A stretch of 58,062 bases of DNA, the filler included, from Porpidia crustulata (lineage: Eukaryota), in NCBI GenBank assembly GCA_964255105.1. It is 6 parts of 6 records of this genome, joined end to end, with 100 filler letters (N's around TTAATTAATTAA, not from the genome) between each part and the next. Parts side by side here need not be neighbours in the genome. Positions count along the whole stretch, not along the records: positions 19,420 to 29,025 come from CAXUWE010000912.1; 5 more parts are not named here. One strand, written 5' to 3'. The notes beneath the pieces were generated by a model. The model was not told the origin of the DNA and did no database searches. It worked only from the letters and a program-made list of their open reading frames with translations. The position numbers and the translations under genes were made by a program. Of this stretch, positions 4,104-55,760 are shown in pieces (within the stretch, counting starts at the first letter, position 1; each line of letters opens with the position of its first letter).

Positions 4104-6782
4104 ATGGAGCCTCCTCAGAAACCACCACCAACGTCACTTTTCCAAGTGTACCTACGTCTCCGTCCTCCACCATCACCACTTGTCCAATTGACACAACAAT
4201 CGCTATATCCTCTACTCCCGGGCCCTGAACGATATCTTACAGTGGAATCAACCTACAATGACTCCCCTGATGGCAAGCCTACACATATCACAATCCATCC
4301 GCCAAGCGAATCACGAAAAAGAGCGGTGGAGAAATTCGCCTTTACCAAGGTCTTTGAGGAAGAGGCATCGCAGCTTGACATCTTTCGAGAGACTGGAGTT
4401 GTATCTTTAGTCGAGGGAGTGCTAGGTGAGGGAAGAGATGGTCTAGTTGCTACGTTGGGAGTGACGGGCTCTGGAAAGGTTTGAGAGCATAGACCATTGA
4501 TGGCAGAACAGAAGGGGGTCTAATTGATCGCAGAGCCATACAATCCTGGGATCGAAATCGCAACGAGGTATCACCCAACTATCGGTTGACCTTCTATTCA
4601 GATCTCTCGGCAAGCAGATACTCCATCCCACCACCAGCCCCTCGTTAGTGTTATCTTTAAGCGCAGCGGATTCTTCGGAAGGACAGATACTCTCAGCCTC
4701 AAGTTTCCTCGATGGCATGTTTGGGGACGTTACGCAGTCGCAGCGAAGCTCCCGGGCCCCCACACCCATGATGGTATGCAGAATTTCTACTTCACCCAAA
4801 ATACCCCCTGCTTCAACCGGGCTTTATGGCCAGTGGTCTATCCTAAGTCTCGATGCTGGATCTTCTCCCATAGAAGAGAAATCAAACGCAGAGTCACTGA
4901 TAGCTTTACCTTCCCAAACCATTGACCAGGGGGAGCGATCCCTACCTTCCAAATCATTCATTTGGAACACCCCCAGAATAACGAGAAAACAAGCTAAACT
5001 ACGCTTCGGTAACACCCTCCAGGATCCCCATTTCGTTCCAAGCGTACCGAAGCGCAACCTCCCTCAACGACCTTCGGTGCTTCCGAGTTTTCCTGATATC
5101 AGCGATTTATCCGTATCGACGAACCCGAATACAGAATATACGATTTTGGTGTCCATGTATGAAGTGTATAACGACAGAATATTTGATCTCCTTTCAAAGT
5201 CTCAGAATCTGAAAGACCTACGTCGACGACCGCTTTTGTTCAAATCTACAGAAGCCTCACCAGATCGGAAAGTAGTCGCTGGGCTCCGAAAGGTTGTTTG
5301 TGGAAGTTACGAAGAGGCACTTGTGGTGCTTGAGATAGGATTGGTACAGCGAAGAGTCGCTGGGACTGGAAGTAATAGCGTGAGTTCAAGAAGTCATGGA
5401 TTCTTTTGCGTCGAGGTAAAGAGGAGGGCAAAGGGTGGCATGGCAAGCCTGTGGAGTGGAGCGCAGCTTACGATTGTTGATTTGGCTGGTGAGATGCAAA
5501 GAGAAGAGATCCAGTCACTTTCAGAATGCGCGCTTACCAAGAATGAGATAGGTTCGGAACGTGCGAGAAACGCTAAAACAGCTGGAGCTACCCTGGTTGA
5601 AGCAGGCAAAATCAATGAGAGCTTAATGTACTTAGGCCAATGTCTCCAGATGCAGAGCGACTGTCAAGAGGGGTCAAAGGTGGGTCTCTTGATTGACATC
5701 CTCGGATCTGCCTTGTTAACATTCGATAGCCTTCCATCGTCCCGTTCCGCCAATGCAAGCTCACCGAGCTTCTCTTCTCCAATTCCTTTCCATCCTCATC
5801 ACATCACCCGTCGCATCATGCTGTACATCACCGCAACGCCCAGAAAGCGATCATGATTGTGACCGCCGACCCTCTTGGTGACTTCAATGCTACCTCCCAA
5901 ATATTACGTTACTCCGCCCTGGCTCGCGAAGTCACTGTTCCACGAATCCCTTCCGTGTCCAGTACCATTCTGTCTTCCATCTCGGCATCCCACAAACCTC
6001 AAATTCAGACTACGAGCGGGCGTACCTCGCCAAATGAAACAGAAGATACGGATAAGGGTGCCATTCTGGAAATGGCTTTTTCCGAAATCGCGCGTTTGAG
6101 CGAGGAAGTCGAGATATTAACGATCCGACTGAGCGAAGAAGAGGGAAGGAGAAGGGAGGCGGAAGAAGAATGGCAGAAGGCGGAGGAGAAGGCGGAAGCA
6201 ATCGAGACGGCTGTGAGGGAGGAATGTTGGGGGGACATGGAAGGGAAGCTGGCCGAGGAGAGGAGAAGATGGATGGGAGCCTGGGGCGAGGAGGCATGTT
6301 TACTATGAATTGGCGCTTTAGGAATGCAACGAGCTAATACAGCGCAGGCCGACCGCAATGACGAGCACCTCGACCGCAAACTGGAGATTCTGTCTCAAGG
6401 CATCCAAATCCACGAAGACGCTCCTCAATCGCCAAGTCAGTACACGGAAGACTTGGAATTGGAAAACGAAGCTCTACGCCGCAAACTCGAGAGTCTGGAG
6501 CGGGAACTCCAATCTCAATCACCCACTCGATCGGCCAGGAAGTCGCCGCTTAGCCTCAGGGTAGGACAAGACGACTTCAGTCCGATTATAAGCAGATTTG
6601 ATACGATGCACTTAAAGGAGAACGACAGTAGCAGGATGGGGATGGGCTCGCTGAGTAAGGAGATGCGGACACCGAGTAAAGGGGAGGTCAAGATACCGGG
6701 CAGGAAAGTCAGGAAATTGACGGCGAAGAAGTGGGACTTGATGGATGAGAACGAAATGGACACGTATGGGGAGTATTACTAA
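4104..6782 (+). CDS. Kinesin motor protein, kinesin-6 (Klp9/MKLP-like) type
   Basis: FQVYLRLRP, P-loop GVTGSGK|SHT, YEVYNDRIFDLL, switch I NSVSSRSH, switch II VDLAG|SER, INESLMYLGQC, VPFRQCKLTELLF; C-terminal coiled coil; introns ~4480-4534, 4774-5022, ~5490-5551, ~5680-5730, 6294-6347. Confidence 0.92.
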
Positions 6783-9611: not shown

Positions 9612-9711
9612 NNNNNNNNNNNNNNNNNNNNNNNNNNNNNNNNNNNNNNNNNNNNTTAATTAATTAANNNNNNNNNNNNNNNNNNNNNNNNNNNNNNNNN
9701 NNNNNNNNNNN
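9612..9711. other. Artificial contig spacer N44-TTAATTAATTAA-N44
   Basis: 100-nt N run with a six-frame stop linker. Confidence 0.98.
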
Positions 9712-16801: not shown

Positions 16802-19319
16802 ATGGAGGCAGAGATAAAAGCACAGATCCCTGCTGTGGATCCAGTAATTGCGACTTATGCTCAGGTAGCCTTAGCCCCCAGCCCTAAGCCCCAATCTCTG
16901 TGCGGAGGATATAATTGCATTGTATATCCAATCGAGTAGTGCTGACACTATCAAAGGGCTATCTCGATCATGCCTCTCAACAGTATACTTCAGAGGCGGA
17001 TGCTGGTCAATCCCCTCTTGACGAGGCTGCCGAGACCATTACTGCTCTGCTAGTATCTGCATCAGGGGACTTCTCGGATCAGAATGCAACGTCAATCCGT
17101 AATCTAGTTGACAAGTTCATTTCCAAGCTCAGCGCTACGAATGGCGTTGATGGCGAGAAGAGGCAGATGGCGTTGGTGACCCGGAAGCTGGATCATGCCA
17201 TTCAAGTTGGATCACAGCGTAACATCTCCTCAACTCTGGGGCTTGCCGGGGGCGTCGTCGATCTTGAATCTGCCAATACCAAAAAGGTAGAGTCTCGAGT
17301 AGACAGAAAGAAATTGGAGAAAGCAGAGAGAAAGATCCAGGCAAAGCAGGAAAGGAAGGTCATGAAAAACGTAGAGTATGAAGCATCGAGGTTACTTGAT
17401 CAGCCAGATGATGCTCAATCGTACGAAGAATTTTTCATGCAAGTCAATCCGCTGCAACTAGGAGCCGATCAGGCATCGAAGAGCAAGGATATCAAAGTCG
17501 ATGGCGTCGATGTATCGATCGGTGGCAAGCGTATTCTCACCGATACGACTTTAACCATGGCCTTTGGTCGCCGCTACGGTCTAGTGGGTCAGAACGGCAT
17601 TGGAAAGAGTACTCTTCTGCGGGCTCTGAGTAGAAGAGAGTTGGCCATCCCTACGCACATCTCAATTCTCCATGTTGAGCAAGAGGTGTGGAACTGCTCT
17701 TTGTTGAGATCCCATCGTTATGAGATTGATACTGACATTTAATTTTCTGCAGATCACTGGTGACGATACACCTGCGTTACAAGCAGTGTTGGATGCCGAT
17801 GTCTGGCGGAAGCACCTGCTTGCTGAGCAAGAAGTATGAGCTCAGAGACTTCCATGGCTGGACTAGGATTAACGACCTCACAGAAAATCAGCAAAGAACT
17901 TGCCCAAATTGAAATTGAGCGATCTTCCATGGCAGATACTTCAACCGATGCGACGCGCATAGATGCGCACCGAGAAGGGCTTGATACTACCCTGAGTGAC
18001 ATCCATGCTAAATTATCTGAAATGGAATCGGATAAAGCAGAGTCTCGAGCTGCAAGCATCCTGGCAGGTCTTGGGTTTTCCGAAGAGCGCCAACACTATG
18101 CCACCAAGACTTTCTCGGGAGGATGGAGAATGAGACTGGCGTTAGCAAGAGCGTTATTCTGCGAGCCTGATCTTCTATTACTTGATGGTAAGATACTTAC
18201 GATTGACGTTGAGATGAGCCGCTAAAGACGATGTAGAACCGTCGAACATGTTGGACGTCCCATCAATCACTTTCCTATCAAACTATCTCCAGGGATATCC
18301 CAGTACTTTACTCGTGGTTTCACACGACAGGGCGTTCCTGAATGAAGTAGCCACCGATATCATACACCAACATTCAGAGCGCTTGGACTACTACAAAGGC
18401 GCCGATTTCGGTCCATCCCCCCTATTCCCCGAATTTGATCTCTCCCCACTAACACCTGCCAGACTCCTTTTACGCCACCAAAGAAGAACGCCGCAAAACC
18501 GCCAAACGTGAATATGAAAACCAAATGACAGTCCGCGCTCACCTCCAATCCTTCATCGACAAATTCCGCTACAACGCCGCCAAATCCTCCGAAGCCCAAT
18601 CCCGGATCAAGAAACTTGAGAAAATGCCCGTCCTGGAGGCCCCCGAATCCGAATACATCGTCCACTTCAAATTCCCCGACGTCGAAAAACTCTCCCCGCC
18701 CATCATCCAAATGACCAACGTCTCCTTCGGCTACACGCCCGACAAACCCCTCCTCGCCCACATCGACCTCGACGTCCAACTCGACTCCCGCATCGGCATC
18801 GTCGGCCCCAACGGCGCCGGCAAAACCACCGTCCTCAAACTCCTCATCGGCCAGCTCACCCCGACCAAAGGCCTCATCTCGCAGAACCCCCGGCTCCGCG
18901 TCGGCTTCTTCGCCCAGCACCACGTCGACGCCCTCGACATGGCCGCCTCCGCCGTCGGCTTCATGGCCAAAACTTTCCCGGGCAAGCAGGACGAAGAGTA
19001 CCGCCGCCACCTCGGCGCCTTCGGCATCACCGGCATGACCGGCCTGCAGAAAATGGCCCTCCTCTCCGGGGGCCAGAAATCCCGCGTCGCCTTCGCCTGC
19101 CTCAGCCTGACGAACCCGCACATCCTTGTGCTGGACGAGCCGTCGAACCACCTCGACATCGAGGCCATGGACGCGCTTTCGCTCGCGCTCAACCGCTTCC
19201 AGGGCGGCGTGCTCATGGTCAGTCATGATGTGACGATGCTGCAGACGGTGTGCACGAGCTTGTGGGTGTGCGATGGTGGGAGGGTGGAGAAGTTCGAGGG
19301 GGATGTGAAGGCGTATAAG
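16802..19319 (+). CDS. GCN20: ABC-F family translational regulator Gcn20, 3' end cut by contig break
   Basis: Two ABC domains without TM segments: GQNGIGKST, FSGGWRMRLALARAL, LLLD|EPSNML; GPNGAGKTT, LSGGQKSRVAFA, VLDEPSNHLD; first exon MEAEIKAQIPAVDPVIATYAQ; about five introns. Confidence 0.93.
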
Positions 19320-19419
19320 NNNNNNNNNNNNNNNNNNNNNNNNNNNNNNNNNNNNNNNNNNNNTTAATTAATTAANNNNNNNNNNNNNNNNNNNNNNNNN
19401 NNNNNNNNNNNNNNNNNNN
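19320..19419. other. Artificial contig spacer
   Basis: Same N-TTAATTAATTAA-N linker. Confidence 0.98.
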
Positions 19420-23969: not shown

Positions 23970-26920
23970 ATGGATTTTGTAAGTTTCTCAATTCTTGTTT
24001 TCAATCGGGGGAATTTTACTGACAATGGTTGAATTTACAGTGGTTGCGCTTGACCGGCGGAGCCAGCGCTTCCTCTTTGGCCAAGCCAGCATATTTCACG
24101 GATCCTCAGCAACGTTTGGCCCGCTTCAAGCGGATACATGACCAGCTATTGGTAGAGCCTTCATGAATCCACCAAACCCCTAGCTAATACATGAGATAGC
24201 AATTATGGCGTAGCAAGAAATATCTGTCCAACGGCCCTACTACCACCGAGAATGTTCGCACTTGCATTGAAGGCCTCAGGCGTATGCTGGAATATGAAGT
24301 CCAGGCGCCGGCACCGCACCTCTGTATTGAGTTTCTTGCCGCGTCGCAGACTTACAATGTTGTGACAAAGATTGCGTCGCTGTCTCATGACGAAAGTATT
24401 ATTCGCGAGACACTCGAGTTGTCGAACATACTTATCGAAAATGAGGAGGGTAATTTTCTCGAGGATCAGCATTTCGCAGATTCACTGGTAGCTTTAATCT
24501 ACGCATTGTCAAGTTCTATCGCATCTCTGATGGAGGTTGAGAACGCTATGGTCGAGGTCTTATTCGGGATCGCAGCCAAGATGAGACAGCAGCCGAAATC
24601 ATTGCCAACATGGTTTAGGCCTGGAAATCGTCACCCAGAGGGTGCCACATCGGGGTCTGCAATCACTAATTCCAGCTCGAGGTCAAATAACCGAGAGTTT
24701 CCTTTGTTCTACTTCCTACTTAACTATGTGCATCATGAAGGTAAGGTCGGTGACTTCGCAAGAACAGGGCTCCTGTATATCATCGAGACTGCTACCCATT
24801 CCGACGAATTAGAGAGATGGATTGTGGAAAGCGATCTCGCCATGTTGATGGCAAGTGGGCTAGGGGCACTATATAGTCAACTTAGCAGGTACATTACTCT
24901 CGTTCCATGTGAAAGCTCTGCAGCTGAACTCTGTAGGAAGCTTATCCTATCATTTCCCAATGGATCAGTGCCTGCGATAGTTGCTTTCTCTGGAAACACC
25001 AGTCCTCCACCTCCCCTTGGTACAGAGATGTCCACTTCCGAAGAGTTCCAAGCACATATGGCTACTTTTCTGTCGTATCTAGTCTTCTGGCAAGATGTCT
25101 TAGAACACTGTACTTCAAATGATGTGAAACAGAGCTTGCTTGACCATTTTGAATATCTTTTCTTGCGGCAATTATTGTAGGTTGATTTGTCAAGTAGCGC
25201 TTTTAACATGCTCACAGCTCTTAGGTACCCTTCGCTGATGGAATCCTCCGATACTGATGGTGGCTCGGCTGTTGCAGTCCTAAGTTACCTACGATGTATC
25301 CTCGAATCGATTGATCATCCTGAGCTTACTCATCTGATCCTACGGTATCTCTTTGCCCTTCCCAAAGGACTGTCTGAAGATTTGTCAAAGGCAAGACCAA
25401 CCACGCTCGTGAGGCGACGAAAGTCCGAAATACTTATCAGTACCTTGGCTACTGGTGATCAGAAGCCTTCGCCAGACTTGTTTACTCTGGTCGATTTGAT
25501 ACTTACTAATCTCCAGAGTCGAAATCAACAAACAGTCACCGCAACTCTACGCTTGATTTCTGTCATCTTACGTAGTCATCATCAGCATGCCTTATCCACG
25601 CTTGTCAGAATTAATACGGAGAGTTCGAGCGTCCAGCGCACAATTCTGGCTCACGACGAAGCCCTAGATCATCTCCTCTCCCTAGCAGAAGATGTTGCTC
25701 CCCATGATGATCTAGAAGTATCTTTCGAAACGCACCTGCAGGACGCACACAGCCTTCTAGAATTCCATGCATGCTCAACCTCTTTGCTTGCTCTACCTAG
25801 CATGAGTTCACTCATAACGCAGCCTTCAATGGAAAAGCACACATCAGAGAAACCGCCATTACTGCAAGCACATAGCATTTCACCCGATGATCCAATGTTG
25901 AAATTGCTTCTATTATCATTTGCAAATTTTCTACAGAATGACATTGAGACAAATCTCAGCTTGACGCAGACACTCTCAACCCTCGCATCGTGTGGCTTTA
26001 CCCAATTGGAAGGTTGGCTCTTGTCGAATAGTGAGAACAATAGTCAAACTACAATATTTGACACTCGAGAAATATCCGGAGTCGATAATACTCATGAGGT
26101 GATTGTGGATGAGCATCGTCCTAGCGCTTACGGCGATGACAATGCTGCTGATACACACGTCTTAGATCCGGTCTACCAAAACCTAGCTTCGGCGTCTTCG
26201 CCTGTTCTTACTGTCCTTCAGTCTCTTCTCGACCAATTGGAGAAAATTCGGAGGACTATTCCAGACTTCGACTTGTATTTGGCTGAGCGCCGGCATATAT
26301 TCAAGGTCGGAGAGGAAATCGATAATGCTCTAGCAGAGAAATCTAACATTCCTGGAAAATCCGAAGACTCAAAACACACTTCCCCTACAAGATACCGGGA
26401 AGCTGCTCCGATGGGTTCAATTCCACCGCGACTACTATCTGAAAACACTTCAGCCAGTGCCTCTCGATCCAGCTCTCCGCGAGGTAGACAGTTGACCGAC
26501 CCTCCGCAATCTGCTCTGGTTGGAAGGTTGAGCCATCTCCAAATCCCTCCTTCATCAAGTCCTTCAGGTCTAGGATCGAGGGCTTATTCATCGTCCCCAT
26601 TGCGGAAACACTCTTTATCATCGCAACCCCCTAAATTTGCCAACCCTTCCTTGGGTCCTGCGGATGCACTGCAGCAGAGGATTAAAATGAACCCGCGACC
26701 GGTGGATCGGCGAGGTCATGTGCGTGAGCTAGGGAGCAGCGAATCCAGTACTGTACGCAGTGAATCAGGCGAGCCGGTGTCGCGCACCGCGGAGGAACCA
26801 CCCGAGGTCAGCCTCAGCCATCTACTGACAAATGTGATCATCCTTCAGGAGTTCGTTCTGGAAATCGCTGCTATTGTACAAGTGCGAGTGAGCTTGTTCG
26901 ACGAGGTTGCATTTGTCTGA
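23970..26920 (+). CDS. fhipA: FHIP / RAI16-like (FAM160) subunit of the FTS-Hook-FHIP dynein adaptor complex
   Basis: 9-nt first exon ATGGATTTT plus intron 23979-24040 gives MDFWLRLTGG; FPLFYFLLNYVHHEGKVGDFARTGLLYIIE, MASGLGALYSQLS, FLSYLVFWQDVLEHC, C-terminal SHLLTNVIILQEFVLEIAAIVQVRVSLF. Confidence 0.88.
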
Positions 26921-27765
26921 CTTTGGTATCGGCACGCACGATTTTGTTAGCTAGAAGGTCGTGAAGTTGGACGTCGAAAGACATCCACCCGGCGAGTTGT
27001 CTGAATCGAGTTGCCGGAGTGGCCGAAAGATGTAGTTGAGTATTCGATATCCTTGTCCCTGGTGGTTAAAGTATCAGAATCAGCCTCCCTTGCAGATGTA
27101 TATTTGACTATCGCACTGTCTGACCGAGCGTGAGCGCAAGGAATTGGCGACGAGGTGAGTAGTATAAATATGGCCCTGGCTTTTCAGCAGTGTAGCAACA
27201 TCTGCTTACTGTCTACGTTCAGTCTTTGTCGATACAAACTGCCAGCTCTCTGGCTCATAGTCCTCATAAAGCGTTCTCCTGTTGAACCGAAGTCCACCCA
27301 CCCATTTCCTCTCATATCAACTTTGGAGGGACCATGCTACATTGGCATTCAGCAGCCTATTCCCCGCAATCAGCAGCTGCAGGGCAGACTTGTTATAGGG
27401 TCACCGACGTCTGATCATTCGTGGCGTTTGTCAAATAGTTGCGATTTAAGAAGCCGGGAGGCTATATTTTCATGATGCACTGATCTATAGTGCTTCAATG
27501 ACCCTATGACTATAGCAAAGTATATTTCTGTCAAGCACAATATACAATCAATCCATATATCCTTCCCAGCAATGGATCAGATCACGCCTTGCGAATATAC
27601 CATCTTTCCAGTGACATACCTATCTGCCTCACCCATGCATCTGCCTTTTCCACCCACTCTCAAACTTCCCCCGTCATGTCGTATCAGTCGAATTTCCCAA
27701 TGAAGCGACATGAATCCTCAAGTCATTCCTACAATTGAAACACTTGAATTATATCAGAAAAATTC

Positions 27766-27770
27766 AAAAA
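27766..27770 (-). terminator. Pol III oligo-T terminator of the tRNA gene
   Basis: TTTTT on the minus strand 2 nt after the discriminator base. Confidence 0.75.
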
Positions 27771-27772
27771 TA

Positions 27773-27914
27773 TAGTCGCACTGAGGATCGAACTCAGAAC
27801 TGGAAGTTATTAGCATGGTGTAGGATGTTGATGGTTGAATTTCTGTACCCTTCTCGGAAGCTGCGGAGTTCACAGTTTGTGAACGAGAAATCATAACCAT
27901 TAGACCATGCGACT
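27773..27914 (-). tRNA. tRNA-Val(CAC) with two introns (canonical 37/38 intron 27858-27877; GT-AG insertion 27800-27848 in the variable loop)
   Basis: Spliced form AGTCGCA TG GTCT AATGGTTA TGAT T TCTCG TT CAC AC CGAGA AGGTT CTGAG TTCGATC CTCAG TGCGACT A: perfect 7-bp acceptor, 5-bp anticodon and 5-bp T stems, A and B boxes, discriminator A73. Confidence 0.9.
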
Positions 27915-29025
27915 GTAATTCTTCAAGTTTAGGCTTATTGTAAAATCTATTATTGATGATTTGTAAGACGACAAGATAAGCGGAAAGATTAGTATCGACT
28001 CTCCTCTGTGTTTAGATCATTAATGTGGGCAATATCTTTATTGAATACATAATTGGCTTTTGCAAAATAGAAATGTGTCCCAAGATCATATCTATGATCA
28101 TATTCTCAATATAGCCCTGCTATTTTTCCTTTCAGTGAAACGACAAAATCAGCAACGAAGGCCAAAAAACCCTCACAATCTCCATCTCCACCTCCATCTC
28201 CATCCACTTCATCTCCAACGCACCGCAACAAATACTCTCAACCTACCAAAAAAAAATCTGCATTTCATTCTATCTGCTAGTCCCAAGTATCTACTCCAGC
28301 GTGCACCAAACCGTAAGGCTCTCTATCTACACTTTATTTCCCGTCCGCTTCATTATTTACCAAAACTTTTCTTTTGAGTGGTTTTTTCGTGCTTGTTTTT
28401 CGATCTCTGTGGACGTGGAGAAGCTACAAAGCCCGCGCAATATACGAGATCGAAGCGTTTCATTGAGAATTAAATATCCGTGCGGAATTTCAAATCCACG
28501 TTCCTCTACGAGTATAGCAAAAGACACTGCCAACAATCGACATCCAAACCCCCCGCGACCGCGACCGCGACCGCCACAACCCCTATCACAAACCCCCCTC
28601 GCTGAGCGCCACCAAGACTCACGTCCGTCACAAGTTGATGACAGTCTTCAGAAAACCACTACCAAGATCATCACCAACTACAATCGCGAATACCCTTCAG
28701 GAGCAGAAAAAAAATGTCGTAGGCGGAGGGCAAGTGGATAGATACGGGTATGGTGGCTGGGGGGTATCGATGGTGCGGGAATCACTTCAACGGAAAAACC
28801 CTCCACGCCAAATCCCCTAACCCGAACGCCAATCAAAAACACCAATACCAAAGCATCGCAACCCCCCCTCCCCCATCAACCTCCCTTAACCCAGCAAAAC
28901 ACACAACCATAACAGACCCAAACACTAAACCCAACCGTCAAAAGTACCACACAAAACGACGCTAGCGATATAAAACCCTGCATATAAACCCCTGCAACCC
29001 ACCAGCAGCACCAGCATCCACGATC

Positions 29026-29125
29026 NNNNNNNNNNNNNNNNNNNNNNNNNNNNNNNNNNNNNNNNNNNNTTAATTAATTAANNNNNNNNNNNNNNNNNNN
29101 NNNNNNNNNNNNNNNNNNNNNNNNN
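29026..29125. other. Artificial contig spacer
   Basis: Same linker. Confidence 0.98.
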
Positions 29126-30204
29126 CATCCCCATTCCCCACCCATCCTCCACCCTTTTTATTTGAGTCATATCTAGCTCGAGATACAGCCTTGGGTGGCG
29201 GAGGTTTGGGTGGCTCCCCGTTTTGGGAACAGCTTCAAAGTAAATTTGTGATTTCGTTGACACTGAGCGCTATTGTATCGCATGAAAGAAGTTCATCACG
29301 TTCGGCTTTTTGAAAGTATGCTGTAAAATCTCCTTGAACATCGTATCTGCTCTATTATTATAGCCGTGGCCTTTTCTCCATCAAAATCTTTTTTTACATT
29401 TCAAGAGATACGTACCCAGATAAGTACATTTTCCTATACGGAGAAAAGAGGGATTGGTCGATGCGGCGGAATTGTTAATTTGTTATTTCACCTGATTCGG
29501 AGTTCTGTACGCTCGATGTGGCAGGCGTATGAAGTATACAGCCTGACTCAGCGTATCAGAATCCTGAGTCAGAAAGGGCTTGGGTTCGAAATTCGCCGAG
29601 GATCGCCTTGGTTCAAGCCGATCGAAGACCACAGTCTTTTCGCTTCTTGCTGTACCATTGATTGCTTTATTTGCAACCAAAGTAGTAGCCTTTGGAAATA
29701 AGCTGCGTCATCTCCCTCACATGAAATATCTACATCGAATGTAGAAGGCCATTAGAAGATCCGATGACGAGAGTTTTTGAGACGTTCAGGGGTAGCCAAA
29801 ACCATGGTTTGGTTCGTCTGTGTCTAGTCAGATCTTTGGTGGATGTACATAAATCTGACCGAGCTGAGAAAGGGCGAAGTGCTTGAGTTGGATGCCCTGA
29901 AGCATCTCGTTTCCACCATTCACCGAACCCGGCAAACGTTTCGCGCAGAATCTTGTCGTACAACACGACCGCTAGCAAATCATGACAGAACGAGCAATTC
30001 CGTCAGTCTCTATGTAAAATCATGTAAGATTGTCTTGTTTCCACAACACTGCTAATTTGCCAAGAGTACGTCTGCAGGCCTTGCGCGAAGGGGAATAGGA
30101 CCTCGAGAAAGATCCGGCATCCTGTAAGATATCGAGTCGTCATCATCGGAGACCTGGCTTGAGTATCCCTCATCATTTTCGTCTTCGTCTTCGTCTTCAA
30201 TATA

Positions 30205-33200
30205 TTAGTTATCATTACTGTCAACTGATTCGTGAACGTTACTCGACATCTCATGTTCACCACTTTCAATAAAGGGTTTAAACCGATAGTCGGGACTAGA
30301 ATAGGTGTGAAGAAGACTGTTCATCTTGGCACTGCATATCTGCTTCGCAAGCTGAGGCACTGATATACCCTCAGAGTTCGTGCTGAGCGCATCGGCTCCG
30401 TGTTCGAGTAGGCGCTCGGCAGCTTCGACACTGTCGATTCTGACTGCCGCGAACAAAAGGTCCTTCACGTCTACCTTCTGTTTGTCGATGGCTGCGCCTT
30501 GTTCCACAAGTTTAACTGCTACAGGATAGTGGCTGGTATTTTGGGCAATGGATAAAGCGGTAGTGTGCCATTCATCTTCCAAGTCGGGTGCGGCATGGTG
30601 ATCGAGTAGCACACTGGCAGCCTCCAGATTCCCCCAATGTGCAGCAAGATGCAAGGGCGTGCGGGATTCATGGTTGACTTCATCTGTAGACATGTGGCCT
30701 TTGTCGAGGAGAATTTTCAGACTCTCGATATGGTTAGCTTCTACCGCCCAATGAAGAGCCGTATATTCGCTACCCGGCTCTTTTGTCTGTAGGTCACCGA
30801 TCCTTGCCACAATCGCCTTGTTCAGCGGGTCAATGAGACCTAATCTTGCGAGCGACCAAATAGGGAGCTCGTCGACATTGGGAATAGAGTTGACCGATCT
30901 GAAGTAGCTCCCACCTTCCAACACACCCATAATTTGGGTCTGACCATATTGCCATGCGACCTTCCAAGGGGTCCTGCCATAGTTGTCTTCCTTACTCGAA
31001 TCTGCTCTGATGTCGAGTAAAGTTTCAGTGACTTCAATTTCGCCACTCCTACTCGCATCATGTAACGGCCTGATACCATTCTTGTCCGCAGTATCTGGAT
31101 CAAGTCCGTTCTCATTAAGAAGGCGAACAATCCTCGAGTGCCCGTTCACACTAGCGCTGTGCATCAGACCACGATTGTCGTTATCTCGGACTTGAAGGTT
31201 AATAGTACTCTTGTACTTCAGCATTACCTCAACGGTTTCGGAAGACCCGTAGTCAACTGCGCGTAGGATTGCTGTGCCCCCTCGACGGTCTGTGAGACCT
31301 GGATCGGCACCCCTTTGTAGTAAGAGGTCGACAATAGCAGCTTCGTTTTTCTCCGCCGCAAGTATCAGTGCAGTACGGTCCGCTATAGATTCGCGCGAGT
31401 TGACGTCGATGTCCTTTCTGTCAAGCAAAGCCTCGACAGTCGAATAGCAAGGCTTTGAACAAGCGATGGACAATGCTGTCAATCCGTCTGAATCCCGCAG
31501 ATTAACATTGACTTGTTCAAATTCGAGGAGTCGTAGAACGATACTGGAAAGGCCCAAATTAGCCGCAAGCATGAGCGCCGAGCGATTGTAATTATTTCGA
31601 TTTATGGAATTGAGAATGCGCCCCTTCCTGTCCAATCGTATTCGATCTAAGAGGAGACTAATAATATCTTCGTGATTTCGTCTAATTGCTTCCCACAGAG
31701 CATTGCGTCCAAGGATACTCTGACGGTCTAGAGATGCTCCGAGGTCAAGGAGCTCGCGCACGACCTCGACGTGACCTCTCCTACAGGCATACATTAGAGG
31801 TGTCTGACCGTATCTCCATTCTTCTATGTCGACGAGTCTCGTCTTCTGCTCTAGCTCGGGAATGATTGTGGATAGCCCAAACCATGCACACACATGGCGA
31901 CCGTCAATTCCCCCAGGTACATCCCAGCTGCCGTCGGAACCAGCCTTTGTATACCACGCTGCCTCGATGTATGCGTCAACACGACGCGGCTGGCTCAGAA
32001 GTTCAACAGTTCTGGTCCGAAGACCAGGATTTGGACCAGCATCGCGGACGTGATCTCCCCAAAATTGCGATGTATACGCGATGAATGGATTTTCTGCTTT
32101 CTTTGTTTCAAATTCATCGGGGTCTCCGTAAGGTTTTGCAAAAGCCTCATAATCCAGGCAGGTCAAACAAGCGTTGGCCATATTGATCTCCATGTCTGGA
32201 TACCATGCTTGCCGGGTTTCGTCGAGGTAATCTTGCAAAGTGACGTGGACGAGCCTTACAATCTTATTGCTGTCTATAGTGATCAACCCGGTCGTGCTAA
32301 GCTGGATATCTTGGGGATCATAATCCCGTTTTGGATTGAAAGCAATATCACCTGGTCTTATCGCTAGGACATGTTGCAGCTCAGCTAAACTTAGGCGTTG
32401 GTGCGCACACACAATCAGGGCCAATGTTTTGAGTCCGAGGGCGCAATCTCCACGGTTATTTGGACCCCGGACTCTTTCCATTGCTTTTTTGTAGATCCCG
32501 TTCAATTCTTCTGGATAGTTATCTAAGATTTCCTCAATATCTTCAATCGTCTGGGCTGCCTTAATCGCGTCCATGTACAATTGAGCATATAGAAATTTAT
32601 ATTTCGATTTCCTGACAATGATGGATGGAATCCGGTCTCGAAGTGGGATTCGGTCAAAATGAGGCAGCCGTTCTCGGAGTTCCTCATCCTGTCTCAGCTT
32701 TCTACTGAGCCTAGCAGCATCAGGACGGGCAGGATATATTCGCTTGTCCCAATATGGGGCACCGAATTCTTTCTCCTCTCGTCCAATTTCGAACTTCACA
32801 TATCGTTCTATATCCAATTCTTGTGTTTTGACCTCAACCTCGACCTTGTAATAAGGCTCGACTTGCTTGTGCGACACATCTTTGCAAGGCGTGTTCTGGT
32901 CCTTGCAACGTTGGCAAATATCATATTCACCTCCATCACAGATTTCGCAACGATAATATATCTTGATATCCTTTGCATCGCACGCATCACAATCAACAAC
33001 ACGTTCAGCATCTACACCGTCGAACCTTCTCGACATGACCATCAGACTCAGGTTGTACTCTTGAAGCTTGCCGAGAGCGGACAGCAATTCATACTGGCGA
33101 CCCAGATCACCGCATTCATCTAATGCATCTACTATAAGATATGTCCTCTCGTGAGTTGCGAGTTCGGCTCGAAGGAGTTCCCCAAGCTTCTCTTTCTCAG

Positions 33201-34366
33201 GAGCGGCAATTGGCTTGAACACCTTCGCGCTTTTCCACGCATGCTGGAGGTCTGCAGACACGGCTCTCGAAGATCTCCGCCGATTTGGCTGTTTAAGCTG
33301 TTTGAGCTGTTTGAGCTGTTTGAGCTGTTTGAGCTGTTTGAGCTGTATGAACTGCTTCAGCAAGCTGCCCAATAAGTTCTCTATCGTTTGGTTCCTGGAA
33401 TCCTTATGGTCTAGGAACAGACAAATCACCGGTCTATCGACATCCTTGAACTTTTCCTCGAGATGATTCTTCACGATGGCCGAAAGCATGGTCTGGAAAG
33501 ACTATCAGATGATGGATTGATAAATGCGCAGAATATCACCGGCAGCTTACTTTTCCGGTGCCTGCCTCTCCATAACAATGAAGATACCATGGCCGGCCGG
33601 TAGCCCAGAGAGTCAAAGTCGGCGAGTCAAGCAGCCACTGGCCGATAGGGAATGATCTGGCCCAGAGATACTTCTGCCTCGCCTGGTAGTCCAGGGGAGA
33701 AAGCCATTGCTGAATCAATCCGCTCTCCTTGTCTTCGTCGTCTTTTCTCCTCCTTTCGTCGTCTCTTCTCTTCCCTTCCTCCCTCTCACGTGCGAGTCTG
33801 AGTATTTCTGTCGTTTTGGCATTGGTGTCTTGCCCAACGTCCGCAACACCTTTCGTTGTTTTCAAGATGTGCTTAGAAAGCTCCATCTGGAAGATAGGTA
33901 AGAGGTGATGAATATCTGAGCGCGATTTTCTTATGTCCGTGAGCATGCTTATCAAGTCGCCCTTCTTCCACAGGTAGTACAACTTTGTGCAGAAACGATG
34001 ACTTTTCCATCCTCGACGATTTACCATGGCATACAAATTTGCCATGTTCTTTTTGAGTCGTGCCAAAGGCCCCCCCGGTTCACCCCCCGGATCCGGCTCA
34101 TACGTCCAATCCGCATTCAGCACCCCACTTGTGCGTTCCAACTCCAATATGTCTTTGATCCAGTCCTCAGCGGTATCCGTATCATGCTTAAGTCGCTCGA
34201 TCTTCTCAACAAGGTTCTGAATCTCCTCTAAGTTCTCTTTAATCTGCTTGATTTCTTCTTCTGCGTGGCTCAGGTCATGCCAGGTCGAGTGAGCCTGCTG
34301 TCCAGCCAGTCCGCAGAGCTGAATCAAAGTGAGACAGCCAACAGTGATGCTGAAAGGGTCAGTCAT
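30205..34366 (-). CDS. Fungal NLR-like STAND protein: helical (HeLo-like) N-terminus, NACHT with inserted ZZ zinc finger, ankyrin repeats
   Basis: Start MTDPFSITVGCLTLIQL; WLSPLDY; Walker A GEAGTGK|T split by intron 33493-33550; Walker B YLIVDALDEC; CDAC-YRCEIC-DICQRC-C-H ZZ motif; RLVHVTLQDYL; many ankyrin units (GQTPLMYACRRGH, TALHWAVEANH, RTPLHLAAHWGN). Confidence 0.92.
33289..33342. repeat. 9-bp coding minisatellite (CTGTTTGAG x5 plus one variant) encoding (LKQ)6
   Basis: Read directly from the sequence; lies inside the NACHT domain. Confidence 0.95.
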
Positions 34367-35588
34367 TGTGACGAGAATCAGACACCAGAAGGCAATAGTG
34401 AATTCGGGCACAGATGGCCGAGTCGGACGAAGGATATCAAGATAATCCTAAATACGACAGTGCGACTACGAAATTAGCAACCGGTCAATTGACGTTGCCT
34501 TGAGTGAGAGCAAAGTCAACAGTATCGGAGGAGCCACAAGCACGAGGGCAATAGGCAGCAATGAGCCTTGAGCCGCCCAGGCAAGTTTGACTACCTCGAC
34601 CCTTGACTAAATGAGGCTTTTATGTGGAATCGCAACCGGCGAGGGCAGCAAGATATTACTCAGTCACAGGCTGGCTGGCTAGACTTGGATGGCGCCTCCG
34701 GAAGCAATTGATACCGTATTCTATAATTCTATACCATGCTTAACCCTTCATGTCGGTTTTGTAAGTCTCAGGCGTCCAGCCAAGGTGCCAAGATGCATAC
34801 AGGTGGGGCTGAACGATCAGGTACGAAACCCCTAATCTGTTCCGTATCCCGCGTTCCTTACAACTCATTAGCGTACCCATACTCGCCATGCTTGTTCGCA
34901 TACCTTACGCCGCATGGATCTGGCTTTGAAAGCAGCTGTGGGCTGAGAGCTACTTCGCATTCCGTGGATGTCACATAGGTATCTACAGGCTATAACGGAA
35001 TCTTGGTCGGAGTCTGTATAGAAGACCATCCAGATGCATCGACGGTAGATTGACGGTGGCGGAGGGAGGGAAATGGGCCATGTTGGCGTGGGACGCCTGA
35101 AAGTGTGGGGTGATTTTTCGCTTCCGAGAACCTATCGGGTGAAGTGATTGATGATACTCGTAATCACACTAATTCGTAAGCATTATACTTTACCTGTCCT
35201 CAGATTCTTAACGCATCCATGCCTTTCTTCGTGGTCGTCTACTACTGTACAATTACGCTCATGACGTCTCATCGTCCCACGTAGACAGCTGACAAAGCGC
35301 GTCAGTTTCTACATGCCTTAATGTCAAGTGATGGACGGAGCTGCCCAGCTACGGATAGCCTGGCGCAGTCCCAAAATCGATGACAACGAAATTCGATACT
35401 CTAACATCAAAAGGGTTACGACTCGGCGATGGCTAACCCAATTGCGGCTGAGCGACGAATAGCATCGAAGCTGACATCCCTAGCGTGCCATATTGCAGGG
35501 TCGACGTTGATCAGACCCAATCAAAATGTTGCAGTATTCTCACTCATTCACATCTTCATCACCGTATGGGGTTAGATAGAGTAGAATT

Positions 35589-38705: not shown

Positions 38706-38805
38706 NNNNNNNNNNNNNNNNNNNNNNNNNNNNNNNNNNNNNNNNNNNNTTAATTAATTAANNNNNNNNNNNNNNNNNNNNNNNNNNNNNNNNNNNNNNN
38801 NNNNN
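38706..38805. other. Artificial contig spacer
   Basis: Same linker. Confidence 0.98.
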
Positions 38806-45898: not shown

Positions 45899-47314
45899 AT
45901 GCCTCAGCCCGTACGGCGCTATGCGTGCGACCGATGCCATGGGCAGAAATTACGTTGCCTTCATCAACGCGACGGCTGCGCTAGATGTGCCAAAGCGAAT
46001 GTACCCTGTACATGGACTGCGATAGTGCGCGGCGGACCGTCAGTGGATAGAACTGCTCCTCGCCCGTCTGCTGGTAGATTGGAGACGCTCACCCGCAGAT
46101 TCGAGGATGAAAACTCTGACCTCGTTGAACCCAACCTCATCACAGAAGATCAGGAATCGAATTTGTGGTCTGCATCAACGGCCAGTGAGTACTCCTTACT
46201 TCTCCAGGAAGAAACCCTGACCTGACCTAGTCGTTCAGGAGATAGCAACAGTCAAGACCATCGGCTACCTATTGAATCCGCCTCAAGTCCGTTTGTGGAC
46301 GTACCTAGCAACTTCCAAACGTTATACCACATCGCTCCAATTGACTCCAAGGGGTGTAACCCAGATATAGGTCTTGCGGAAGCCATTAATCTACCAAACT
46401 TTCTATACCACGATCCTGATGAGTGGCTCAATAGTCTGATCTGTCCAGCAAACTCACAGCAACTCCAGGACTTAACACCTACAAATTCCGACTTTCTCAG
46501 CCCTCTTGACTTTCCACAGGCGACCAATTATCAATACCAGACACAAACAAATGCACACGATGAAGATAGTCTAAACGCAGCTGGCACACTCCGTCATGAG
46601 ACAACGTCTGCAAGCTCTTCATTTTCTACGCTTTCCACCATAAGAGAGCTGAACAATCTCAACATTAAGCTATATGCGCATGCTTCCAGCATTCCAAAGC
46701 CACCCAACCTTACAACAGAGACCCTGAGCTGGAAAGACAAAGATTTCGCAATGGACCAAACATTTGAGCTATCGCAAAGCATGATAGCGCTGTTGAATCG
46801 TCTATCTCCCGCAAGGGCTATAGAGAATTCTTTGAACAATAGCCCGAAGTTCAATTCATTAACTCCACAATCTCCTCATCCTCTTGCGGATCCGGAATCA
46901 CCCCGTATAGACCAAGCATCTATGCTGATAATCTTGTCCTGCCACATTCGTTTGATGGAGACGTATGATCACATCTTCAGGAACATGCAAGCCTGCCTAG
47001 ATCGGTCTTCCACCACAGCACCCGAAGACTACGTGAGCCTCCCCTGTGTCAGCGTCGGTTCATTCTCTTTTCCGCCTACCTCCGCAATGCAACTCACCAT
47101 GATACTACATTGCGCATCGGAAATATTAGGTCGACTGCGTAAAGTCACGGTATCAAATAGATTATACACCGCCTCTCAGGATGAAGACTTCAGAGCTGGG
47201 TCTGATCTTGACCCCATAACTATAACTGCGAAAGCAGTCACGAGAAAGCAGAAGAAACTGATAGATCGAATCAAAAATTTGCGGCAGTCTCTCGTAATAT
47301 TAGACATCATCTGA
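45899..47314 (+). CDS. Zn(II)2Cys6 pathway-specific transcription factor
   Basis: ACDRCHGQKLRC-CARCAKANVPC; intron ~46185-46238; C-terminal ELNNLNIKLYAH...ASMLIILSCHIRLMETY...LPCVSVGSF typical of cluster regulators. Confidence 0.9.
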
Positions 47315-47371
47315 GCAGGAAAAATCTTCGCTGCTGAGAGTCTAGATGTATCGCTTGTAGCAGCCCCGTTT

Positions 47372-47878
47372 TCATACCGTCCTGACTTCGATCGCTCTCA
47401 GAACAGCCATTAAGAATAAGAGCACAGCCGGTATATTACATGTCGCGATCCTCCACCAGTTCATGTTAAGCCAAGGCTTCATCATTGCGAGATTTTTCTC
47501 GCCAGAAACTTTAGCATCCCAGATAGTTCCTATCATTCTCATCGCGGTCTTCCCAAAGACGGCATGCATTCCTGCAAAGAAACCACCTGCGAAGTACAAC
47601 ATCCGAGTCTGGTTGTCAAGGGCTGCTCCAGCATCTCCGAACCCGTTCAAAATTCCCAGAAGTCCCCCGAGGGGATGAACGATGCTGACGACCCAAATAA
47701 GCCTGCTAAAAACCACCGGAAACCAATGCGGGAGGACTGCGCCCGCTGGACCTTGGGGGACAGAAGGATGGACAAAGGGTTCGAATGTCCATTGCTGGTC
47801 ACAAGCGCACATCAGCCCGGCGGTGGAGGTAACCAGCGGCATTGTGCGCAAAATTTTGAGAATCAAGTTGCTGTACAT
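47372..47878 (-). CDS. Small multi-pass membrane protein, possibly DUF1772/anthrone-oxygenase-like
   Basis: 168 aa with about four hydrophobic helices; LPHWF, GGFFAGMH, W-L-MNWWR pattern; family assignment is tentative. Confidence 0.7.
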   Translation of the reverse strand: MYSNLILKILRTMPLVTSTAGLMCACDQQWTFEPFVHPSVPQGPAGAVLPHWFPVVFSRLIWVVSIVHPLGGLLGILNGFGDAGAALDNQTRMLYFAGGFFAGMHAVFGKTAMRMIGTIWDAKVSGEKNLAMMKPWLNMNWWRIATCNIPAVLLFLMAVLRAIEVRTV

Positions 47879-48384: not shown

Positions 48385-48484
48385 NNNNNNNNNNNNNNNN
48401 NNNNNNNNNNNNNNNNNNNNNNNNNNNNTTAATTAATTAANNNNNNNNNNNNNNNNNNNNNNNNNNNNNNNNNNNNNNNNNNNN
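48385..48484. other. Artificial contig spacer
   Basis: Same linker. Confidence 0.98.
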
Positions 48485-54139: not shown

Positions 54140-54577
54140 TATCAGTTCACATTGATATGATACGCTCGGTGTCTATTCGTCGCTACCGTCATTCCCATCT
54201 CTATGATATACATGCATGTCGGCTGCTATGTGCTTTATTACGGGATACCCTTCTGGGCTTTAGATTTAGGATGTCATAGATGGGCAAATTCAAGCTCGGA
54301 CTCTACCGGAGCCCCACCAACGGCCTAGTCGAGTATCTTGGTTTGCTTATCGGAGGGATGAAACGTATTCACTGGCTGAGGCTCAGCTTTCATTAAGTCT
54401 CACGCTTTGTTTGGCCCAAAACACCCAAAACTGCGCCGCATGCACGACCAGTAGATGTTCCTACCTAGTCGCTTCCTACTTTTCCTTACCTAACGATATG
54501 GGAATATCATAGCTCTTGATACTGTTGTGTTATGATGTCTCTCATCTATCAGCTGTGCATGACATGATAATTATCTC

Positions 54578-55760
54578 TCATTGCCGGTCGCTTTTTTCGT
54601 AGCTCGCACAAGCCATGCTATTTTCCGCTCGCCTCTCTCTTTGGAAGAAGTATGAGTGGTTTTCTGCGACTGGTTCAGTGCTGAAAGGCATAATTAGTAA
54701 GTACAACACCCTAGCATTGTCAAGGAGAATCTTCAGATCTTCTGAGGTTGTTTCTTCCGAACCATTACCAAATATGGGCGCGACCGATTTTCTGGTTCGA
54801 ATCTCACGCACCCACAAGAAATATGGCTTCCGAGTGCATCTGATTTGACTTTGTTTGACATTAGTCTGATTTAGTGAGATGTATTTGCCGGTTCGAATCT
54901 TACTTAAAACACCAGCCAATATCCACAAACATCTTACTCAAGTTGTTAATTGTCTCTATATAATAGCAGAGGCTTGGTTGCTAATATCGGTTCTCCGTGC
55001 AGCCCCTCCACAATATGACACATTTGAGTCTAATCTTCAGGCTACACTGACAGACTGACTAGAATCATTTATGTATTATAGTCTCTAAGCTCTCATACTT
55101 CCGTACCGTAGGAACCGTTCAGCTCCGGCATCAAGTCAGTTGCAATATACTCCAAGTCAACATGATGCGCATTATACCACAGATACGGCCAGGGACTTAG
55201 CATCATGTGCTCAAATTATGAGAGAAATTAATGATTTAGATCTCGAGTTTCCTTTCGACCAGTTATACAAAGCCCAGGTATCTCGACAACCTAGTTACTG
55301 GACTCCCAGCCTCATCTTCACACATCCAGGTCCAATTCTAGGCCCACTTGACATGATGGACCAGGAAGTCCCTCAGCACGTGCAGATCTTCCGCGCTCCG
55401 AGGCTGTCCTTCACAAAACTGCGTCTCAAGATTCTCGCAAGCTTTCCATACTTCCGGAGGGGGATTACAGCTCTGGAAGAGTATGTCATACAGGCCAGCC
55501 TTTTCTGGCGCACGTTTGCCATCATGCAAGTAGCAGCCGATACTATGATTCTTGTTCGTCAAATAGTTGACAGGACAGGAAGTGGAGGTGCATGGCTTGG
55601 TGGCGTTCTTCCAGGTCTGAAAATCTTGCGAGTCTGAGATCCATGGGCTGGAGACCCAGGACATTTCGATGGGTAGGGTGCCGAGATACTGTCTTAGGCG
55701 GTCGAATGTCACCACTCTCTGTTCCAAGGGACCTTTGCTTTGATTGGTCTTTCCTTGCAT
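54578..55760 (-). pseudogene. Possible decayed orphan gene
   Basis: 140-aa ORF 55338..55760 continues in frame with protein-like text after TAG/TAA stops (KWA*NWTWMCEDEAGSPVTRLSRYLGFV*LVERKLEI*); a second fragment lies at 54578..54928; no family recognised. Confidence 0.3.

Follow-up and report, generated by a model that had tools for sequence, protein, structure and literature searches.

The window, a stretch of 58,062 nucleotides of Porpidia crustulata DNA along which all positions below are counted, carries on its minus strand a gene for tRNA-Val(CAC) that is interrupted twice. One interruption is an ordinary tRNA intron in the anticodon loop. The other is a 49-nt insert in the variable loop that carries signals of the spliceosomal type. 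The parts of the gene, the candidate splice signals and the sequences that flank or resemble them are listed in Table 1.

Table 1. The interrupted tRNA-Val(CAC) gene, the signals of its 49-nt insert and associated sequences, with positions in the window.
Feature	Positions	Strand	Basis or remark
Whole tRNA-Val(CAC) gene, 142 nt from A1 to discriminator A73, two interruptions	27914..27773	minus	RF00005, and ARAGORN after in-silico removal of the insert
Exon part 1, tRNA 1-37: acceptor 5' strand, D arm with A box, anticodon stem 5' strand, anticodon CAC	27914..27878	minus	
Ordinary tRNA intron, 20 nt, at 37/38	27877..27858	minus	ARAGORN
Exon part 2, C38-G46: anticodon stem 3' strand, first three variable-loop bases	27857..27849	minus	
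49-nt insert with spliceosomal-type signals, between G46 and U47	27848..27800	minus	
Putative 5' splice site GTACAG, exon side AGG	27848..27843	minus	4 of 9 positions match the U1-complementary consensus; A at +5, G at +6
Putative branch site GCTAAT, branch A at 27810	27814..27809	minus	Branch A 10 nt from the 3' end of the insert
Putative 3' splice site CAG	27802..27800	minus	Preceded by the pyrimidine run CTTCC
Exon part 3, U47-A73: T arm with B box GTTCGATCC, acceptor 3' strand, discriminator A	27799..27773	minus	
Two T5 runs just 3' of the gene, Pol III terminator-like	27770..27766 and 27762..27758	minus	Sequence read
Stretch weakly similar to the insert: reverse complement of tRNA 1-35 plus 13 nt of 5' flank	27880..27927	plus	

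The gene was hidden from standard searches. Default ARAGORN reported no tRNA at the locus with the intron option either on or off, and Rfam searches over the whole window did not recover it, whether gathering thresholds or an E-value were applied. Its match to the Rfam tRNA model RF00005 was obtained only when 701 bases were searched under lax filters. That match runs end to end over 27773-27914 (35.5 bits, gathering threshold 29, E 1.1e-5), and its alignment contains two insertions: 22 nt in the anticodon loop and a single insertion of about 49 nt in the variable loop. ARAGORN -i called nothing with the insert left in. After the 49 nt had been deleted in silico, the same program returned tRNA-Val(cac) with a perfect 73-nt cloverleaf and a 20-nt intron at 37/38. 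No second tRNA gene was found in the 58-kb window by ARAGORN or Rfam. Two other Rfam matches in the window were weak and are probably due to chance: IS009 at 47243-47383 (27.9 bits, gathering threshold 117) and sR17 at 54552-54604 (22.2 bits, gathering threshold 36).

The shorter interruption behaved as expected of its kind: in the predicted fold, TGTGAAC of the 20-nt intron pairs with the anticodon loop (GUUCACA/UGUGAAC), as in ordinary eukaryotic tRNA introns. Transcription by RNA polymerase III ends at T runs. The first T5 run begins 3 nt beyond the gene, and a sequence check detected no T4 run within the 49-nt insert or the 20-nt intron. Only when the 49 nt were left out did the features of a functional nuclear tRNA-Val(CAC) come together: the cloverleaf with its invariant bases, both boxes (A and B), an intron at 37/38 that pairs with the anticodon, and a terminator made of a T run.

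The sequence-only reading of this DNA had placed a 49-nt spliceosomal-type intron between tRNA positions 46 and 47. Its coordinates, strand and letters were borne out when the sequence was re-read, and three lines of evidence agree on the position: the insertion in the RF00005 alignment, the ARAGORN model after removal, and the breakpoints of blastn, which split 24 related Val(CAC) loci exactly at 27849/27800 when they were aligned to the window. The boundary is ambiguous by one G, the insert being readable as AGG/GT..CAG/TT or as AG/GGT..CCA/GTT; only the first register has GT-AG ends. After in-silico joining, the junction reads CGAGAAGG/TTCTGAG. A cut at GT/AG restores the AGGTT variable loop, in agreement with the sequence-only reading, and this same loop is present in 28 of 28 related Val(CAC) genes.

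The signals named in that reading were all found again: a GT donor, GCTAAT with 9 nt behind it, the short pyrimidine run CTTCC and a CAG acceptor. GT, a CTRAY motif whose A lies 7-20 nt before the end, and YAG were combined in 4 of the 114,546 49-mers of the window, both strands counted. With lengths of 45-61 nt allowed, 34 of 572,320 window stretches passed the same test, and some of these are real introns. Allowing for the two registers, the chance of such a signal set is about 1 in 10,000; on these sequence counts it is very unlikely that the signals of the insert arose by chance. The insert alone has no predicted secondary structure (minimum free energy 0 kcal/mol; 200 of 200 shuffles fold at least as well).

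For comparison with the insert, we used 11 mRNA introns of the window that were fixed with annotated homologues in the kinesin, GCN20 and FHIP genes. Ten of them came from a scan that scored the joined junction peptide against homologues. Ten of its 37 rows were kept, with scores of 184-253; the other 27, with scores of 92-136, removed open coding sequence, many beginning with GC, and were dropped. The eleventh intron came from a tblastn alignment, where a 16-residue gap contained stop codons. Lists of introns drawn up by ORF logic were set aside as too ambiguous, and only homologue-backed junctions were used.

In every feature the insert fell within the range of the 11 validated introns, with its donor at the weak end of that range. 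Validated introns were 48-67 nt long, and 6 of the 11 measured 48-50 nt, compared with 49 nt for the insert. Over positions -3 to +6, validated donors matched the U1-complementary consensus at 4-7 of 9 positions, two of the 11 at only 4; the insert (AGG/GTACAG) also matched at 4. An A at +5 was shared with three of the 11 (GTACAT and GTAGAG in FHIP, GTCCAT in GCN20). Strict CTRAY branch motifs were present in five validated introns, and CTAAT at 10-12 nt from the end in three; the insert has CTAAT at 10 nt. The acceptor was CAG in five and TAG in six, and is CAG in the insert. These comparisons support the conclusion that, in size and signals, the insert is indistinguishable from the validated mRNA introns of the window.

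A likeness to local mRNA introns had also been proposed in the sequence-only reading, and most of it stood. The GTACAT donor in FHIP (24889) and the GCTAAT motif in a kinesin intron were recovered, and GCTAAT was seen in FHIP intron 1 as well. The SDR intron that had been cited alongside them is an ORF-logic candidate without backing from homology. The donor of the insert had been flagged as weak at +5; the weakness is real, but it is of less concern when three of the 11 validated introns have A at +5 and two match the consensus equally poorly.

The reference introns had peculiarities of their own. The FHIP (RAI16-like) gene contains three introns of 48 nt each, at 24152-24199, 24889-24936 and 25177-25224, all in frame. 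Two of them have A at +5 (GTAGAG, GTACAT), and the middle one lacks an in-frame stop and reads through as 16 extra residues. The kinesin intron at 6294-6347 is best read as GC-AG with the donor GCATGT, which gave an ungapped junction peptide with a score of 245; for the nearest GT alternative, 6298-6342, the score was 221 and a 3-residue insertion remained. In the GCN20 intron at 18411-18462, the donor GTCCAT is very poor, matching the U1-complementary consensus at 4 of 9 positions, but the branch motif CTAAC is perfect. Donors in the P. crustulata genome seem to be degenerate in general.

The nearest named relatives of the three homologue-backed genes were Lecanoromycetes. The kinesin showed 60-64% identity to Villophora, Xanthoria, Xylographa and others, GCN20 showed 93% identity to Circinaria, and FHIP showed 48-50% identity to Alectoria and Stereocaulon. 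The tRNA gene itself lies in about 3.3 kb without a recognisable gene (26918-30207, an interval that spans the N block at 29026-29125), between FHIP and a large NLR-like gene with NACHT/NPHP3_N and ankyrin-repeat regions. The NLR-like gene, on the minus strand at 30208-34447, is the nearest minus-strand neighbour upstream of the tRNA in the window. An ORF of 200 codons at 28139-28738 had no relatives among 1.84 billion representative proteins and is probably not a gene. The insert was also considered as an intron of a gene transcribed by RNA polymerase II; this was rejected, as no owning gene was found nearby and the neighbouring ORF is the one without relatives. Blocks of N stand in pairs in the window, each block 44 bases long and the two separated by 12 bases; the pairs return at intervals of about 9.7 kb (9612-9711, 19320-19419, 29026-29125, 38706-38805 and 48385-48484) and do not have the look of assembly gaps.

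The insert was then sought in related genes, as the sequence-only reading had proposed. The related set comprised 28 Val(CAC) genes: 24 metagenome loci and four copies from two other fungi (runs X2 and X3 of the same study). None of the 28 carries an insert in the variable loop. When metagenomes were scanned for Val(CAC) genes that share the anticodon arm and have 30-60 nt inserted behind AGG, none was found; a control scan that allowed 0-30 nt found the 24 loci, all of which have an uninterrupted AGGTT loop and an intron of 15-30 nt at 37/38. Runs X2 and X3 each had two contigs with Val(CAC) exons, at 0-2 differences (1-2 differences for exon part 1), and all four copies have a short 37/38 intron of their own and an uninterrupted variable loop. 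Because 0 of 28 related genes carry the insert, there is no sign that its splice signals have been conserved or that the intron has lasted.

The exons of the window's gene are the consensus of the Val(CAC) family. They were identical at all 73 positions to those of 11 of the 24 metagenome loci (23 were parsed; the 24th differs by eye). The flanks of the metagenome loci gave no blastn alignment with those of the window for any of the 24, and hence none is an orthologous locus. In a further run, X1, one contig of 8825 nt lay on the stretch and was identical to it; it is probably the window's own source and was not treated as independent. No other X1 contig held the tRNA exons, but these records are filtered, and so the result was not counted as evidence for a single copy. 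Among the metagenome Val(CAC) genes, the 37/38 introns were highly variable in sequence as well as in length (15-30 nt). By eye and without a count, most of these loci have a TGTG- or GTGA-containing stretch in that intron which is complementary to the anticodon loop. Several metagenome assemblies contained two or three distinct types of Val(CAC) gene.

Folding of the precursor revealed a possible interaction between the insert and the 5' half of the tRNA. In the prediction, tRNA nucleotides 5-29 pair with insert nucleotides 5-36 through 22 pairs. In the unconstrained precursor fold, at -35.2 kcal/mol, the insert is paired to the D-arm side and the cloverleaf is broken; a forced cloverleaf reached -25.6 kcal/mol. 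The duplex of the insert with the 5' exon was predicted at -20.8 kcal/mol, a value reached by 1 of 1000 insert shuffles, and 1 of 11 real introns pairs equally well with that exon. At the DNA level, the full insert was aligned to the plus strand at 27880-27927. Under three lenient scorings its score was reached by 21, 5 and 2 of 1000 shuffles and by 29, 5 and 2 of 2990 other window tiles; under a stricter scoring, 97 of 1000 shuffles reached it. This similarity test was post hoc, made after the fold had been seen, and its significance depends on the test used (2-97 of 1000 shuffles). The pairing may be due to chance, may be a trace of an origin by local inverted copying, or may have been selected. 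If the insert is a spliced intron, its pairing with the D-arm side may keep the precursor from folding until the spliceosome has acted.

We tentatively favour the reading, at just short of an even chance, that the insert is a U2-type GT-AG intron which the spliceosome removes from the variable loop, while the tRNA splicing endonuclease TSEN and a ligase remove the 37/38 intron from the same Pol III transcript. The sequence comparisons give partial support to the earlier reading of the insert as a spliceosomal intron. RNA polymerase III would transcribe the whole 142-nt gene, with the A and B boxes intact, no T run inside and a T5 run after it. The spliceosome would recognise GUACAG, the GCUAAU branch site and CAG, and the 49 nt would leave as a lariat; joining of G46 to U47 would restore the AGGUU loop. 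The tRNA endonuclease and ligase would take out the 20-nt intron either before or after the spliceosomal step. For the origin of the 49-nt intron we infer reverse splicing or intron transposition as the likeliest route, as has been proposed for the U6 and lichen rRNA introns. Genes for tRNA are prone to R-loops.

Several points stand against splicing. The donor is weak (4 of 9 matches to the U1-complementary consensus, A at +5 and G at +6), the insert is absent from all 28 related genes, and the predicted precursor fold of lowest energy breaks the cloverleaf, which could hinder processing. The same points suit a dead copy of the gene, a substantial possibility that we nevertheless hold in some doubt. 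In that event a spliceosomal-type sequence would have been inserted recently, by transposition, R-loop reverse splicing or capture of intron DNA, and the Pol III transcript would remain unspliced; the gene would be a young pseudogene and GUG codons would be served by another Val(CAC) or by a wobbling Val(UAC). Families of tRNA genes often contain spare copies, so that a dead one costs little, and redundancy is plausible here, several distinct Val(CAC) genes being present in related metagenome assemblies (for example, three loci in one). No orthologue attests to persistence of the insert, and perfect exons are what a very recent disabling insertion would also leave. Such an event would, however, have to be recent enough to leave all 73 exon bases, the boxes and the terminator unchanged, and every splice signal is still intact as well. 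Furthermore, if the insert is an old local antisense copy of the 5' half, now diverged by about 30% mismatch beside unchanged exons, then selection would have continued to act on the exons once the insert was in place. Both a spliced intron and a dead copy are compatible with perfect exons and undamaged signals, which do not separate the two.

The pairing with the 5' half raises a further alternative, in which the insert is an imperfect inverted copy of the adjoining 48 bp (tRNA 5' half plus flank), made during repair, and its GT, CTAAT and CAG are coincidental. The full-length alignment under lenient scoring and the stability of the duplex with the 5' exon favour such an origin; the stricter scoring, the real intron that pairs as well and the post hoc nature of the test weaken it. 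On this view the signals would have come together by luck, at odds of about 1 in 10,000 or longer, and a neutral dead locus is a poor fit to an insert with about 30% mismatch and 4 gaps next to exons without any change. We regard this origin as improbable. No second copy that would point to an introner or a repeat was found in the window, where the best other match to the insert in 58 kb is 12 nt. A long variable arm of the class II type was discarded, as the insert lacks a hairpin.

Cleavage by enzymes other than the spliceosome was also considered. A canonical TSEN intron must lie at 37/38, as the 20-nt intron does, and the 49-nt insert lies at 46/47. A second tRNA-type intron at a non-canonical site, cut by the tRNA splicing endonuclease through a bulge-helix-bulge (BHB) motif as in Crenarchaeota and Cyanidioschyzon merolae, is very improbable here, even though introns in the variable arm and multiple introns per tRNA are known in those lineages (PMC3978253, in part). 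The geometry sought, taken from the available part of that paper and from general knowledge, comprised two 3-nt bulges at the cut sites, a 4-bp helix between them and at least one flanking helix. In either register, 3 of the 4 pairs of the central helix could form, but this helix would need the 3' strand of the anticodon stem; the outer helix reached 3 of 5 or 1 of 5 pairs, non-contiguous, and for the inner helix the count was 1 or 2 of 5. The insert contains no BHB motif and no internal helix, an intron of this kind is absent from all 28 related fungal genes, and the set of GT, branch motif and AG would be left as coincidence. Because the insert has neither structure of its own (minimum free energy 0) nor a BHB, the tRNA endonuclease would have no handle on it.

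Least credible of all is a minimal, degenerate group-I-like intron of the kind present in rRNA genes of Phialophora and two lichen fungi. Group I introns follow a 5' exon that ends in a U, which pairs in P1; the insert ends in G, a point in favour of such an intron, yet its 5' exon also ends in G, not U. Rfam scans gave no group I match, and no pairing is predicted inside the insert. Small group I introns of fungal rDNA, as described in the accessible part of PMC3160393, occur in related fungi, retain the pairing regions P1, P7 and P10 and measure 56-81 nt; at 49 nt, the insert lies below this range.

By textbook accounts, spliceosomal introns belong to transcripts of RNA polymerase II, and tRNA introns lie at 37/38 and are removed by a protein endonuclease; snRNA genes and lichen rRNA genes are the known exceptions. 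The sequence-only reading knew of no spliceosomal intron described in a tRNA gene, and we too found no case in the full-text literature, a search outside which most subscription journals fall. Spliceosomal introns in non-mRNA genes are known, and a tRNA host, to judge from this search, does not appear to be in print. The rDNA of lichen fungi contains ectopic spliceosomal introns that are cut out of the rRNA, and one of 57 bp was spliced from Pol I rRNA in yeast (PMC8527467, in part, which cites Bhattacharya et al. 2000 for such introns in lichen nuclear rRNA genes). Like these, and in a fungus of the same class, the insert would be a short GT-AG intron lodged in a gene for a structural RNA that is not made by RNA polymerase II. 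Unlike them, it has a tRNA host that RNA polymerase III transcribes, with a tRNA-type intron on the same transcript, and it is a single example known from DNA sequence, whereas the rRNA introns are removed by host machinery.

The U6 RNA of Schizosaccharomyces pombe, itself a Pol III transcript, contains a spliceosomal intron, as does U6 of other fungi, and U1, U2 and U5 of Rhodotorula and rRNA genes are listed as other non-coding hosts (Tani and Ohshima 1989, 1991; Takahashi et al. 1993, 1996; all in the consulted part of PMC5855946). Abundance, structure or proximity have been suggested as possible determinants, and no tRNA is among the hosts listed in that part of PMC5855946. The resemblance to U6 lies in a short spliceosomal intron within a Pol III transcript of about 100 nt, with reverse splicing as the proposed origin; the difference is that U6 sits in the catalytic centre of the spliceosome, which explains the gain of its intron, and a tRNA has no such contact. 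Introns of the BHB type in Crenarchaeota and Cyanidioschyzon merolae also lie outside 37/38, even in the variable region, and can number more than one per tRNA gene; a variable-loop tRNA intron of Thermofilum pendens appears in the reference list of PMC3978253. The insert differs from these in having no BHB and in carrying a GT, branch motif and AG like those of local mRNA introns instead.

Introner-like elements of fungi and algae are short non-coding introns able to insert at new sites, possibly through action of the spliceosome on R-loop DNA, and reverse splicing into the single-stranded DNA of R-loops has been proposed as a route of intron transposition (PMC11146597, in part). A family of such elements has many near-identical copies, placed in introns of unrelated genes within one genome. 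The insert may share these properties; no second copy of it was found in the 58-kb window.

Standard tRNA finders, as seen with ARAGORN and default Rfam, miss genes of this structure, so that a genome might be described as lacking an isoacceptor. Should the gene prove dead, it would still be a clear case, open to dating, of a spliceosomal-type intron inserted into a non-mRNA gene. If the insert is spliced, the spliceosome would be able to act on a Pol III transcript that is compact, highly structured and without a link to the spliceosome's active site, and the transcript would be a natural substrate in which two splicing pathways need ordering in time and place. The spread of introns would then reach any abundant or R-loop-prone transcript. 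If the favoured reading is true, a nuclear tRNA would need two unrelated splicing systems on one Pol III transcript, and fungi of the lichen type would have allowed spliceosomal introns to take up residence in genes of each of the three nuclear polymerases.
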